From Octopus vulgaris (lineage: Eukaryota): DNA of 64,000 nucleotides. The DNA lies in contig OX597829.1 in assembly GCA_951406725.2 (NCBI GenBank), positions 3,348,001 to 3,412,000 on the forward strand, read 5' to 3'. The translations under genes and the position numbers were made by a program. Below, piece by piece: positions 376 to 58,620 of the stretch (the stretch's first letter is position 1; each line of letters starts with the position of its first letter). The notes beneath the pieces are model-generated. The model was not told the DNA's origin. It made no database searches and was given only the letters and a program-made list of their open reading frames with translations.

Positions 376-425
376 GCTGTTAACACAATGTTTCGGCTGT
401 TATACACTCCAGCATTCATCAGGAA
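376..425 (-). ncRNA. Hammerhead ribozyme-like motif in a small repeat (about 320-532)
   Basis: Minus strand reads cCTGATGA-at-gctg-gagtgtataa-cagc-c-GAAAC-attgt-GTTA: conserved CUGAUGA and GAAAC boxes around a stem II hairpin. Confidence 0.65.
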
Positions 426-532
426 ATTTCAAACTTGGGTTCTCATTCCTGAGGTATTTTTCGATGTTGTTGTTGTTGTTGTTGTTGTTGTTATTATTAT
501 TATTATTCAGGTCACTGCCTGGAATCGAACTC

Positions 533-1240
533 AGTGACTGCGGCAACCAAAAGTCCTTCAACCAGAAGTTCATGTTTAACCCTAACCACTCTTGCATGGC
601 CTTAGCCAAGTGGGCTGAGGCACTGTCCTGCTGAAAGACATAGTCCAACTTCTTTATGATCTTTCTCACCCAGGGTAGGACTTTCATGGCCAAGATATCC
701 CTGCAATTGGCTGCAGTGATCCTGTAACTGACCATGAACCACACCAGGGCATCTTGCCATTTGAAGCCAGGGTGCTTGATTGTGGACATGTAGTGGACCT
801 TGGAGATATTCTGGCTGAAATTGATCACACAGTTGTTCTGCTTGCTGATGACCAGATTGACCATGAACGATTTTTCATCAGAAAAAATGAGAATTTGATT
901 GCCATGACACTTCAAGTCATTGAGAAGGCAACTACAGTGTTCCCAACACTGTTTTAACGTATGGTCGGTGAGCAGAGGCCTTTCCACACACCTTAGGCAC
1001 TTGCTGCCCTCCTCCTTGACATGACAACCTTGGACATCATGGCCACTGAGATGTTGTTCTTCCCAAGAGCAGTTATTTTCAGCTTTGGATCATTTTGAAG
1101 GTCTTACTCATGGCCAAATGGTTGACAACTTGAGGTTTGCCTGATTGAGGTCGATCTTTGTGGTATTTTTCCATTCTTGAGCCGCTCTGCAATTTTTGGT
1201 GAAGTCAGACTTGTTGTGGCCCACATACAGGAGAGCAGAA
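533..1240 (-). mobile_element. Degenerate Tc1/mariner transposase, maT/DD37D-like
   Basis: ORF 400..987 contains IFSDEKSF and VFQQDSASAH...QEWL...FWLKDFWLPQS. It is interrupted before the third catalytic residue and resembles the DD37D element at 45185-46452. Confidence 0.8.
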
Positions 1241-1644
1241 GTCTTGATTCTTATTGCTTCCATCTCGATACACCTGTACACAATGTAAAAGACATTTTAA
1301 TTATATGTGCTGGAAAAGTAGAACTTTAAATATGCTTGACAGCACTTTTTCTATCACACACATTAACCTTTCGAAAGATCAAAACTGAGTATAACAGGAC
1401 TTTTGCAATGCCTAGTATGATAGCAAAAGGGATAAAGGGTTCAGTGGCAAAAAGGGGGAGCAGCCATGAAACATCACCTTAAAAAAGGTAATTTACTGAG
1501 TATGATTACAAGAATATCATGGGGCCCACATGGCTAAGACCTGCTTTTATTGGAAAAATCACTTTAAAACACATTCTGTTGTTATTGTTGTGTGTTGAAT
1601 TCTGTTTATAATCATCTAAGTACCAACAGTTGGTGTTAAACAGA

Positions 1645-1830
1645 GTTGAATAGTAGGCCAAAAAGTTTGCTTCAGAACCAGGTAGTTTTGGGTTCAGTCC
1701 CACAGCATAGCACCTTGGGCAAGTGTCTTCTTTTAAAGCTCCAGACAGACAAAAGCCTTGTGAGTGGATTTGGACAAAAACTGAAAAAGGCCGATTCTTA
1801 TATTTATATATACATGTGTGTGTGTGTATG
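1645..1830 (+). mobile_element. Nin/Deu-domain tRNA SINE, 5' half
   Basis: B-box-like GGTTCAGTCCC, CACCTTGGGCAAGTG and GCCTTGTGAGTGGATTTGG...AACTGAAA match the full copy at 49612-50020. Confidence 0.75.
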
Positions 1831-1838
1831 TACATGTA

Positions 1839-54795: not shown

Positions 54796-55022
54796 AAGCA
54801 TATTACTCTACCACTGGTATTTGAGTACTCTTTTTTCCACCTTGTTTCACATTTATGGGTTTACTCCGGTATATATATATATATATATATACATACAGGC
54901 ATGCATATATATATATACATAAATACATATGTAAGTGCATATATATATATATATACATACATATATACATATATATATATATATATATATATATATATAT
55001 ATATATATATATATATATATAT

Positions 55023-55878
55023 ATCATCATCATCATCGTTTAGCATCCGCTTTCCATGCTAGCATGGGTTGGACGGTTCAACTGGGGTCTGTGAAGCCAG
55101 AAGGCTGCATCAGGCCCAGTCTGATCTGGCAGTGTTTCTACGGCTGGATGCCCTTCCTAACGCCAACCACTCTGTGAGTGTAGTGGGTGCTTTTTACGTG
55201 CCACCCACACAGGTGCCAGACGGAGCTGGCAAACGGCCACGGACGGATGGTGCTTTTTACGTGTCACCGGCACGGAGGCCAGTCGGGGCGGCGCTGGCAA
55301 CGGCCACGATCAGATGGTTTGCTTACTTGTCACCAGCACTGGTATCACAGCCGCAATTTCCATTGATGTTGATCGACTTCGATTTTGGTTCTGCTTTCTG
55401 ATATCTGATTTGATTTGGTTTGATTTGATTTGATTTTCATTTGCCTCAATGGGTCTTCACAAGTGGAGTTTTGTGTCCCAAGAAGGAAAGGTATGTATAA
55501 GTTGACTGGCTACATACCAGGTAGAGGCCACGGGTTATGGTCTCACTAGTCTTGCCGGGTCTTCTCACGCACAGCATACTTCCATAGGTCTCGGTCTCTA
55601 GTCATTTCCTTGGTGAGACCTAAAGTTCGAAGGTCGTGCTTCACCACCTTGTCCCAGGTTTTCCTAGGTCTACTTCTTCCACAGGTTCCCTCAACTGCTA
55701 GGGTGTGGCACTTTTGCACACAACTATCTTCAGCCATTCTCGCCACATGACCATACCAGCGCAGACGTCTCTCTTGCACACCACAACTGATGCTTCTTAG
55801 GTCCAACTTTTCTCTCAAGGTACTTACACTCTGTCGATTATGAACACTGACATTACACATCCATCAGAGCATTCTGGC
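55023..55878 (-). mobile_element. 5'-truncated RTE family A (ORF end plus full 3' UTR)
   Basis: ORF 55546..55860 RRLRWYGHVARM...GRSRPRKTW, then the UTR and (CAT)n. Confidence 0.92.
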
Positions 55879-56205
55879 ATATATATATATATATATATAT
55901 ATATATATATATATATATATAAATATATAGATACCCATTTATGTGATAGTCAACAAAGATACATACACTGAGAGTCACATAGCAGAACTTAATATTTATG
56001 CAGGGAAGAGAAGTGCTCATGGTCTTTAGGTGCTTTTGCAGACTGTTGAGATTGATTTGAGGAAATGTTATTCCTAACTTACAGGGAAAAATTCAATTTA
56101 GAAATACTAAATCAAATTTCACAAAATATAATATATATATCTAAAAATTAGAAAAAAACACCTTTTATATATATATATATATATATATATATATATATAT
56201 ATAAT

Positions 56206-56730
56206 TGAAGCTAGTATGCTTCGCTGGATGTGCAATGTCAGTGTTTCATGTACAACAGAGTGTGTCTTGAGAGAAAAACTGGTCATAAGAGGCATCAGAT
56301 GTGGAGATGTGTTGTGCAAGAGAGACACCTGCACTGATGTGATGCATATGGACAAAGACAAATGTGTAAAGAAGTGCTGAGGAGTGAACCTGTGGAAGAG
56401 GTAGACTCAGGAAGACATGGGACAAGGTAGTGAAGGATGACATACGAATGTTGGGCCTCAAAAAAGGCGATGGCAAGTAACTGAGACCGTTGGTGATATG
56501 CTGTGCTTGAGAAGACTTATCAAGTCAAAAGAAACCATAGTTGTGGCTGATGCCAGTGTCACATAACTGGTACCCGTGCTGGTGACATGTAAAAATCACC
56601 CGTAAAAAAACCCCACACTTGGAATGGTTAGCGTAAGGAAGGGCTTCCAGCTGCAGAAACCATGGTAAATCAGAATGGAACCTGGTGCAATTCTTCAGCT
56701 TTCCAGTTCCAGTCAAACCATCTAACCCAA
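56206..56730 (+). mobile_element. Older RTE family A 3' fragment
   Basis: EASMLRWMCNVSV...GRGRLRKTWDKVV plus a decayed UTR. Confidence 0.8.
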
Positions 56731-56889
56731 TATATATATATATATATTTATATGCATCTACATATGGTTACATAGGGTTAAACTCAGCTCACCTTGATTT
56801 CAATTAGCATACACATATATATATATATATATATGTGTGCAATATATGTATAAATATGCTAATTGAAATCATACATTGAAATCAAGGTA

Positions 56890-58620
56890 CTTTTAGGACA
56901 TCAGTTCTCAAGTGCAACGACACACCAGTCACCTTGGTTCTTGGTTATCACCTCCATAAGGCTTCTCCATCTTGAGATTAGCTTTCATCTCATGTCTTCC
57001 TAAGTCTCCAGCTTTCACAAATTTCATCTGATGAGAGAGGTGGCTGTAACTGTCCATATCTTATGTACAGCCCAACTGATGTGAAACTTTGTAGAATATC
57101 AAGTTATCTATCATGGTATATGCTCACTCACCTCTTGACTTCTCCTACTGATGTCATAAGTATATCATATAGGATCAGCATTCACGTGTGTTTAGGTTGT
57201 AGTTCATGCTGGATGATAGAGCCCTTAAACTTATCTGGGATGCTTGATCCCCACCCCTTTGTCTTTTGCGGTCAAGCATTTGCTTATTTCTCAGTCGTAT
57301 ATGAAATGCTTCCAGCTTCTGTCAGTAAAGAAGGCATCATATCATTCCCCCAAGAATTTCATCGGGCTCTCCTCAATAGAAGATATAACCTCAATTTACC
57401 CTGAACTTGGAGCTAGTCACCTGTGCATTTGAAACACCCAAAGAAACCTGGGATGCTACCGTTCTGAATAGATGTATCAATCTGTTTATTACATTAATAT
57501 ATTTGTTTTGCAAGATTTTTGATGTGAAATTGTGTGTTGAAACAGATATTGTTGTATTTAGGAATGGTCATTTTGCCAGTTTAGCCAGAAAGAAGAAAGC
57601 AAAGGACCACTGATGCGGTCACAGGAGTGTGACGAAAGAACTCTGGCCGAAATAAGATTAAGATTAATGTAAAAAATAAATAACGCTGAAGCAAAGTAAC
57701 ACCAAATATATAGTGCGTGTGTTTTTATTGGCTAAACTGGCAAAATGACCATTCCTAAATACAACAAAATCTGTTTATTCTTCACATCATCCTTTTAGAT
57801 AGGACTAAGATCTTGACTTCAACACAGAAATGGTTTGGAACTGACTAATCTCTGGAGAATTTGCTTCCTTCAATATGAAGAAGCCTTCAGTTCTTTTTCG
57901 GGATGATGATATGGTGCCTTTTACCCATACTCTCAATAAGAATTACCACAGCCTGTAGAGTAGTATTAGGAATGTCAGTTATACAACTTGGTCTTGGTGC
58001 AAATGCAGATCAAACTTTCCATACAACCTCTTGGACTTATTTCTATGTTGGTTCTTTTGAAATAAGCTCTTCTTTGGGAGTTCTTGTTTTGTTAATCATT
58101 AGGTCTGCAGTTAATATATGTCTACAAAAAATCTTAGCTTGACTCTCTGTATGGAATTCTTCCACAATTCCTTTAACGCTGACTAGTCTTTCAGACCTTG
58201 CTTTTACTAACAGTATTTTAGTAAATTGGTATGGGATCTTAGTAAAGTGAGCTTCCTTTGCTCGCTCCTTCTTCCTCACTGTGTGAGACCTTTCTGCCCT
58301 TCTTAGCTTGCACATTTTATTCCAAAGACTTCTAGGCTTTCCTCAACACTTGTTCATTTGACTTGCTTATTGAATCTTAATTTCTCTACTCAGATACAAA
58401 ATCTTTCTCTCCCTTCTTTTGAGCTTTGTGGGTACATCTATAGTGGCTCTCCTTTCTTTGGTGTCAAAATATTCATTGGACATGTTGGAGACAATCACCT
58501 TTTGATTGGTCCTGTTTGTGTGGCCTTCAGAACCTTGTCAAGATCCTGGTCTAGTTTGTCCCATGCTGTACAGTTATTAGCTGGAAGTTATTTTACTCTC
58601 CACATTTAACCATTCCATCT
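56890..58620 (-). mobile_element. Decayed R2-superfamily (Hero/NeSL-like) non-LTR retrotransposon fragments
   Basis: RAERSHTVRKKERAKEAHFTKIPYQFTKILL; KGTISSS..RTEGFFILKE.NSPEISQFQTISVL; SIEESPMKFLG...YDAFFTD. These resemble Hero-type pre-RT and RT segments. Confidence 0.6.
57541..57775. mobile_element. Fold-back insertion with 47-bp inverted arms and an internal hammerhead motif
   Basis: Arms at 57541-57587 and 57729-57775. Spacer 57605-57648 reads CCA-CTGATGC-g-GTCACA-ggag-TGTGAC-GAAA-G-aa-C-TC-TGG. Confidence 0.8.

Follow-up and report, generated by a model that had tools for sequence, protein, structure and literature searches.

The 64-kb window analyzed here (positions 3,348,001 to 3,412,000 of contig OX597829.1, assembly GCA_951406725.2) comes from the Octopus vulgaris genome of 2.8 Gb in 227 contigs, has a G+C content of 37.6%, and is rich throughout in microsatellites and decayed retroelements. 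An initial annotation described about 13 dispersed stretches of the window as hammerhead ribozyme motifs, and all 13 read at their window positions as described. A fundamental question is what these motifs belong to and how they came to stand alone. Nine of the 13 lie in multicopy repeat families with a clean hammerhead in the majority sequence, and the families of three of them are pseudo-long terminal repeats (pLTRs) of Penelope-like elements (PLEs), whose open reading frames (ORFs) carry a reverse transcriptase (RT) and a GIY-YIG endonuclease. It is very probable that the nine are minimal type I hammerheads of multicopy families, that the remaining six families are likely PLE pLTRs as well, and that the solo motifs likely arose by reverse transcription that started just behind the hammerhead and stopped early. 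The features concerned are as follows.

305-535, minus strand: family 376 pLTR, the 5'-truncated 3' end of a Penelope/Poseidon-type PLE, inside a remnant that we take, from ORF motifs, to be a Tc1-like transposase
509-532, minus strand: B box, the 3' part of family 376's tRNA-like head, whose A box is missing from the window copy
376-425, minus strand: minimal hammerhead of family 376 (core 422-416 and 394-391; predicted cut after 387)
4666-5090, plus strand: family 4795, young 3' end of a Hydra-type PLE with (TA)-rich tracts on both sides
4801-4807 and 4896-4899, plus strand: hammerhead core of family 4795 (U4C variant), with an 88-nt stem II and a predicted cut after 4907
13870-14340, plus strand: family 14215, a forward 3' end (13955-14340) and an inverted 3'-tip copy (13870-13958); no ORF link
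14215-14262, plus strand: hammerhead of family 14215, core damaged in the window copy
16625-16805, plus strand: family 16703, old, with hammerhead 16703-16746; no ORF link
17358-17850, plus strand: decayed C-terminus of a Neptune-type PLE with cysteine linker and GIY-YIG domain (tblastn E 6e-7, translation)
18124-18147, plus strand: decayed hammerhead-like motif, ~270 nt behind the Neptune-type remnant on the same strand
30652-30939, minus strand: family 30783 (kin of 14215), truncated 3' end with hammerhead 30783-30833; no ORF link
43616-43896, plus strand: family 43657, truncated 3' end closing in (TA)n, with hammerhead 43657-43718; no ORF link
51445-51781, minus strand: family 51548, flanked by (TA)n tracts, the 3' end of a young PLE of Neptune type
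51584-51578 and 51560-51557, minus strand: hammerhead core of family 51548, intact, of the U3-A8 type
54704-54868, minus strand: family 54740, in (TA)n, a forward copy truncated inside the core (to 54773) and an inverted 3'-end copy; no ORF link
57488-57776, plus strand: family 57605, an inverted 3' tip with extension (57488-57587) and a forward copy (57587-57776); no ORF link
57605-57648, plus strand: hammerhead of family 57605, A9C in the window copy

The assignment of these sites rests on their families. Seven of them (376, 4795, 14215, 30783, 43657, 54740 and 57605) each returned 425-3347 first-look candidates in the genome, with at least 40-116 matches listed; 16703 is an old family with 8 genome matches at 69-81% identity, and 51548 is a young one, seen behind GIY-YIG ORFs, whose window copy is 98.8% identical to one collected locus. 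The majority sequence of all nine families holds the core (CUGANGA or its U3-A8 variant), GAAA and UH in this order, together with stem I, stem II and a short helix III. The earlier statements that stems differ between copies while the core is kept, and that these are minimal type I hammerheads of the kind carried by PLEs in several families, are thereby supported, the stem sequences being family-specific yet paired in the nine majority sequences. Over the first four pairs, 33 of 36 positions are paired in stem I versus 16.7 when partner strands are permuted among families, and 34 of 36 versus 18.2 in stem II; none of 20000 permutations was as high, and omitting one of the two kindred families does not alter this. 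For family 4795, RNAalifold applied to 7 copies places the long stem II exactly between the core boxes, and 93.7% of its cells are paired versus 21-39% when the stem is slid. The test for covariation that had been proposed at the outset yields three compensatory pairs in this stem, among 7 related rows. Helix III is a perfect palindrome in 5 of the 9 families and has a palindromic loop in 43657, and families 54740, 57605 and 16703 have none. The AGCU palindrome first noticed in four motifs holds at family level for 4795, 14215 and 30783; in 16703 it occurs in the window copy alone, its relatives having a longer helix III.

The cores themselves vary in a family-specific manner. Family 51548, initially listed as decayed, has an intact core, since UUGAUAA is the U3-A8 variant described in PLE hammerheads (PMC4209133) and is invariant in 22-23 copies. 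U4C is present in 19 of 20 copies of family 4795 and in 88% of the core-covering copies of 54740, and both U4C and U4 occur among older relatives of 4795. A9C is found in the window copy of 57605 and in about half of the aligned copies (A9 in 53%). Variant cores were also observed in loci outside the nine families: a further Neptune-type family, with the core ~500 nt behind the endonuclease match, has U4C in L264, L266, L268 and L283 and U4 in L278 and L282 (4 of 6 U4C), with a 574-aa open frame in L266, and in another PLE family (L265, L270, L281) the core is UUGAAAA, of the U3-A8 type, and stands 1.2-1.6 kb downstream of the endonuclease match. Individual window copies are in poorer condition than their families. 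Private damage is seen in 376 (loss of the 5' strand of stem I by deletion and a mutated palindrome in helix III), 14215, 30783, 43657 and 16703, and 54740 is cut within the core; judged by sequence, these damaged isolated copies are likely inactive.

Families 376, 4795 and 51548 are the 3' ends of PLEs, to whose RT and GIY-YIG ORFs they are joined elsewhere in the genome. Family 376 lies behind the stop codon of a GIY-YIG ORF in locus L033, a protein with at least 150 genome matches at 74% or more, and locus L205 contains most of an RT-endonuclease ORF that closes in the same 376 tail. The ORF of this family matches RVT_1 (E 2e-10), and its 56 homologs are RT proteins of 560-850 aa from many animals. 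Among 30 endonuclease-anchored loci, one of which is the reference itself, the 376 hammerhead is present in 19 and the tRNA-like head in 28. Copies of family 4795 are 96-99% identical; in L200 the repeat follows a 2.3-kb AT-rich untranslated region (UTR), upstream of which stands an ORF with RT, CxCX5C and GIY-YIG as well as CxxC and CxH motifs, and the same locus holds an older relative of both this ORF and this UTR. For family 51548, window positions 51445-51780 align over 335 nt at 99.4% identity with the UTR that follows a 781-aa open frame in L240, and the core is present in 20 of 30 GIY-YIG loci. Frames of 781 aa were found in 16 among the 150 matches listed, two of which were read in detail. 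This Neptune-type family of L240 and L245 is very young, with many 781-aa open frames and the U3-A8 core, and it is probably still mobile; a structure search with the L240 protein returned no similar solved structure. The distance from stop codon to hammerhead core ranges from 0.2 to 2.3 kb, and the clade labels used here (Penelope/Poseidon, Hydra, Neptune) are based on motifs and homologs, not on an RT tree.

The structure of the copies is informative about how solo motifs form. In loci chosen by likeness to the window copies, an inverted second copy of the 3' end was found in 17 of 40 loci for family 376 and 17 of 20 for 57605, with further figures of 9/30, 9/20, 7/25 and 2/25; counts of inverted and same-strand copies for 4795 and 51548 were taken from the core pattern, as AT-rich queries inflate alignment-based counts. 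In seven families a run of (TA)4 or longer directly follows the 3' end in 12-26 of 20-30 loci, versus a background of 14%. An optional tail of ~30 nt is present in 32 of 89 copies of family 376, and 5' ends are heterogeneous across copies. Two cores on one strand were found in 4 of 190 loci and cores on both strands in 34 (210 loci examined, 190 with the pattern). Since same-strand pairs are this rare, the repeats are not head-to-tail tandem retrozymes, and the heterogeneous 5' ends together with UTRs of 0.2-2.3 kb explain the solo motifs as 5'-truncated copies.

For PLEs, a promoter in the upstream pLTR, nicking of AT-rich DNA, and frequent 5' truncation and inversion have been described (PMC8557442, PMC6765202). 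Work on an Anolis element showed that reverse transcription in vitro begins at two sites, both immediately 3' of the hammerhead, and that these delimit the tail, that the hammerhead cuts only with the protein, and that cutting is not needed for insertion (PMC11167929). In the mechanism that we propose, the autonomous element would be transcribed from a promoter in its upstream pLTR, and its protein would nick AT-rich DNA and, if the octopus elements behave as the Anolis element does, begin reverse transcription 3' of the hammerhead. Most complementary DNAs are 5'-truncated, often with an inverted partner, as the copy structure shows, so that each insertion keeps the hammerhead and rarely the ORF. 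Inserted copies then decay neutrally, as their present state shows. Going by the literature, cleavage is predicted to require either a dimeric hammerhead or the element protein. In family 376 the tRNA-like head seen in the pLTR would likely set the 5' end of the RNA, giving rise to the abundant unit of ~270 nt that reaches from head to tail.

Several observations weigh against this interpretation. No joined PLE ORF was seen for 14215, 30783, 16703, 43657, 54740 and 57605 in ~1.5-kb flanks and five stretches of 9-10 kb, and 14215 runs ~0.9-1.1 kb further upstream with no PLE protein remnant. Five of these six families nonetheless have inverted partners and (TA)n flanks, 16703 being left out of that count. 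The junction of ORF and UTR in 4795 was read in one locus, where the ORF has a stop and no start. On the structural side, the permutation test overstates the pairing, as the strands entered as observed had been picked for best pairing, the covariation count in 4795 rests on only 7 related rows, and stem I is short in two of the majority sequences (2 contiguous bp in 4795, 1 bp in 51548). Finally, as loci were chosen by likeness to window copies, the proportions given above are not genome-wide. Two candidate links were set aside: a PLE RT in L113 beside a 57605 copy and a Neptune fragment in L231 beside a 14215 copy could not be shown to be members of those families.

How, then, is family 376 to be understood, in which a tRNA-like sequence is part of the repeat? 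The order of its parts is stop codon, 40 nt, tRNA-like head, (AAT)n, ATG, hammerhead and optional tail, with the hammerhead within the predicted first codons of an ORF (ATG at 446-444 in the window). The head has an A box at +8 and GTTCGA (B box) at +53, which is the spacing of a tRNA, and the abundant short unit of ~270 nt consists of head, (AAT)n and hammerhead. The occurrence of the head in 28 of 30 endonuclease-anchored loci indicates that it is part of the coding element. The pLTR frame, open for 50 codons in 17 of 41 copies, resembles the N-terminus of the full-length homolog P0003 (11/17 identical, E 2e-4), the likeness including the codons that spell the hammerhead core; from this resemblance we infer that in a tandem arrangement the pLTR forms the 5' end of the element.

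A competing explanation for the short unit takes the head to be an active internal RNA polymerase III (Pol III) promoter and the ~270-nt unit to be an RNA of its own, similar to a short interspersed nuclear element (SINE), which the parent element would retrotranspose in trans (or which would be copied in cis from the 5' end of the mRNA of an element in tandem). We place this only a little short of an even chance. Besides the box spacing, the head is 64-68% alike to the heads of other tRNA-type SINEs within the same loci. Among 42 copy ends in loci that were not chosen by endonuclease, 14 fall at -8 to +2 of the head, 19 inside the head and only 9 further upstream; the 14 come from 14 different loci (12 of 40 at -7 to +7 in a first pass) and are connected to host DNA or to differing positions in the inverted partner, not to the local hairpin alone. 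Such clustering is the pattern that run-off at an RNA start would give, whether of a short SINE-like RNA or of the 5' end of the element mRNA. The 19 ends inside the head are spread evenly, and stops at tRNA modifications were discarded as their cause. Against a Pol III promoter, a 5-bp hairpin spans -6 to +5 of the head and several ends are fold-backs on it, ARAGORN gave 0 tRNA calls in 23 loci of the head, Rfam gave no tRNA match for it, and the family is old (77-95% identity). Missed calls by tRNA models are common for old SINE heads.

The distribution of runs of four T (T4) was considered in the same context. There are 0 T4 runs in 2175 nt of the 376 ORF versus 4.5 expected (p 0.007), and none in 38.8 kb of aligned sequence is common to more than 2 copies. 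This scarcity is not specific, as plain synonymous shuffles give p 0.04-0.5 per stretch, RTE and R4-like ORFs are also low in T4 runs, and 11 of 33 distant PLE ORFs are T4-free, these 11 having no pair of A and B boxes. The distant set comprises the 33 with longer matches of 47 metagenome loci found by alignment; P0003 alone as query returned no metagenome locus. As proof of Pol III read-through the T4 depletion was therefore rejected, being suggestive and not specific. The sole A/B-box-like pair among the 33 distant loci lies in L338, 495 nt behind the matched ORF region, and with so loose a pattern it may be a chance occurrence.

Taken one step further, we tentatively hypothesize, with somewhat less confidence than in an active promoter as such, that the terminal repeat of a PLE captured a tRNA-derived Pol III promoter immediately before start codon and hammerhead, such that the repeat would serve both as the promoter of the element and as a hammerhead-bearing SINE mobilized by its parent; Pol III may even transcribe the T4-free ORF. 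A literature search conducted mostly outside subscription papers and repeat databases returned no description of a PLE pLTR that contains a tRNA or Pol III unit.

A different alternative applies to the six families with no ORF link, several of which might be ORF-less non-autonomous elements, either retrozyme-like or pLTR derivatives resembling miniature inverted-repeat transposable elements, copied in trans by PLE proteins. The lack of an ORF in families with hundreds to thousands of candidates each is what such elements would show, and non-autonomous PLE derivatives have been reported (bioRxiv 10.64898/2026.07.22.740005; MRC1 in PMC8557442). We regard this as unlikely, as same-strand pairs are outnumbered by loci with both strands, 5' ends vary, the three ORF-bearing families have the same solo appearance, and for most loci ~1.5 kb of flank was seen where UTRs extend up to 2.3 kb. 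The suggestion in the initial annotation that many ORF-less families are mobilized in trans is thus mostly unsupported: three families are joined to ORFs, copies begin at varying 5' ends and there are almost no tandem arrays. The six unlinked families may still be of non-autonomous origin, and a short SINE-like RNA is plausible for family 376.

That the motifs are chance matches in AT-rich repetitive DNA, which does hold for 7620 and 33160 and with which the weak window-level counts and folding energies would agree, is extremely improbable overall and is refuted for 9 of the 13 sites, where family majorities restore core and stems with unrelated stem sequences at the PLE hammerhead position. 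The window-level results are as follows. The proposed Rfam scan (E<=5) showed no hammerhead family among the matches listed (150 of 184), leaving the window motifs undetected there, and folding z-scores for 12 window stretches ranged from +1.15 to -1.33, none of them notable. The comparison of descriptors with dinucleotide shuffles, also proposed at the outset, gave weak results. A strict hammerhead descriptor matched neither the window nor any of 30 local shuffles, and relaxed minimal-hammerhead settings were barely above local dinucleotide shuffles: 2 in the window versus a mean of 0.21 (3 of 200 shuffles as high), 3 versus 0.89 (10 of 200), and 8 versus 2.72 (2 of 200), the last setting having been widened post hoc after data inspection, with 4 of its 8 matches outside the annotated sites. 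Rfam models and single-strand folding are blind to these minimal motifs; single window copies are decayed and barely above shuffles, and the family-level data are strong.

Four of the annotated sites fall outside the nine families. The motif at 7620 is a chance match, with CUGAUGA in the window copy alone of 11 aligned where the family has CCGGACGA; the surrounding stretch, 7520-7740 on the plus strand, belongs to a hammerhead-free repeat family with 544 candidates that are 87-97% identical. The site at 33160 is not a hammerhead, the core being absent there in 12 of 12 relatives. The motif at 18124 is a probable hammerhead, supported only by its position behind the Neptune-type remnant, and for both 18124 and 31518 no useful nucleotide match was found among the collected loci, no genome-wide search having been made.

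Other repeats were recorded in the window. A 219-nt self-inverted stretch (88%) at 30938-31156 abuts the 5' end of the 30783 copy. A 445-aa open frame at 12285-13622 on the minus strand is presumably the C-terminus of an RTE-type RT, and remnants of non-LTR elements at 36518-38256 (minus) and 32068-32487 (plus), with a zf-RVT match, are taken by us to be R4/Dong-like. A repeat of ~270 nt closing in (GAT)n has at least 12 copies, including 3181-3472, 5100-5540, 8764-9057, 20248-20520, 26131-26447 and 34018-34290; in places it is joined to RTE-like RT fragments, and it contains internal 63-nt tandem units. Minus-strand stretches at 400-1089, 1886-2323, 43970-44416 and 45493-45930 are presumably Tc1/mariner-like transposase remnants; a Pfam search of the transposase-remnant ORF around the 376 copy gave no match.

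The octopus families resemble known systems in most respects. Minimal hammerheads of PLE pLTRs (PMC4209133) share the type I fold, a short or loop-less palindromic helix III, an unpaired base preceding stem II, the presence of several consensus families in one genome, a majority of solo motifs that are attributed to truncated PLEs, opposite-strand pairs and the U3-A8 variant. Going by the main-text description in that paper, the present set is distinguished by its host, the U4C majority in 4795, 54740 and the further Neptune-type family, the 88-nt stem II and the tRNA-like head. The PLE clades with a C-terminal endonuclease, Penelope/Poseidon, Neptune and Hydra (PMC8557442), likewise have RT with C-terminal GIY-YIG, 5' truncation, inverted partners, an optional tail of 30-40 nt and (TA)n targets. 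The 4795 element shares with Hydra the CxCX5C linker with CxxC and CxH motifs; most Hydra elements are under 3 kb, whereas this one is longer through its 2.3-kb 3' UTR. In the Poseidon element PAc of Anolis (PMC11167929) the pLTR also runs into the ORF, the hammerhead overlaps the first codons and the tail marks two 3' ends; the accessible text on PAc mentions no tRNA-like unit, and in 376 the entire hammerhead core comes after the predicted start. The SINE-like Sm-alpha and Sj-alpha repeats of Schistosoma (PMC6765202) similarly place a Pol III-type promoter before a type I hammerhead in a short repeat, but these are non-coding and often tandem, whereas 376 is the terminal repeat of a coding PLE, solo or inverted. 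Non-LTR retrozymes (PMC7229834; bioRxiv 10.64898/2026.07.22.740005) carry their type I hammerhead in short repeats that are non-coding and akin to PLE pLTRs; they are defined by head-to-tail tandem units giving circular RNAs, in contrast to the scarcity of same-strand pairs here.

The main result is therefore ordinary, in that one more animal genome has many PLE families leaving solo minimal hammerheads, a pattern already published (PMC4209133); what is unusual is family 376 with its tRNA-like predicted promoter. Young families (96-99% identity; 781-aa open frames) with natural core variants (U3-A8, U4C) are a useful resource, as they allow the role of PLE hammerheads to be tested with protein and RNA that belong together. 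Should the head of family 376 prove to work as a Pol III promoter, the family would represent a SINE partnered with a PLE and not with a long interspersed nuclear element, and it would provide the sort of coding ancestor that has been suspected for repeats combining promoter and hammerhead, such as Sm-alpha.

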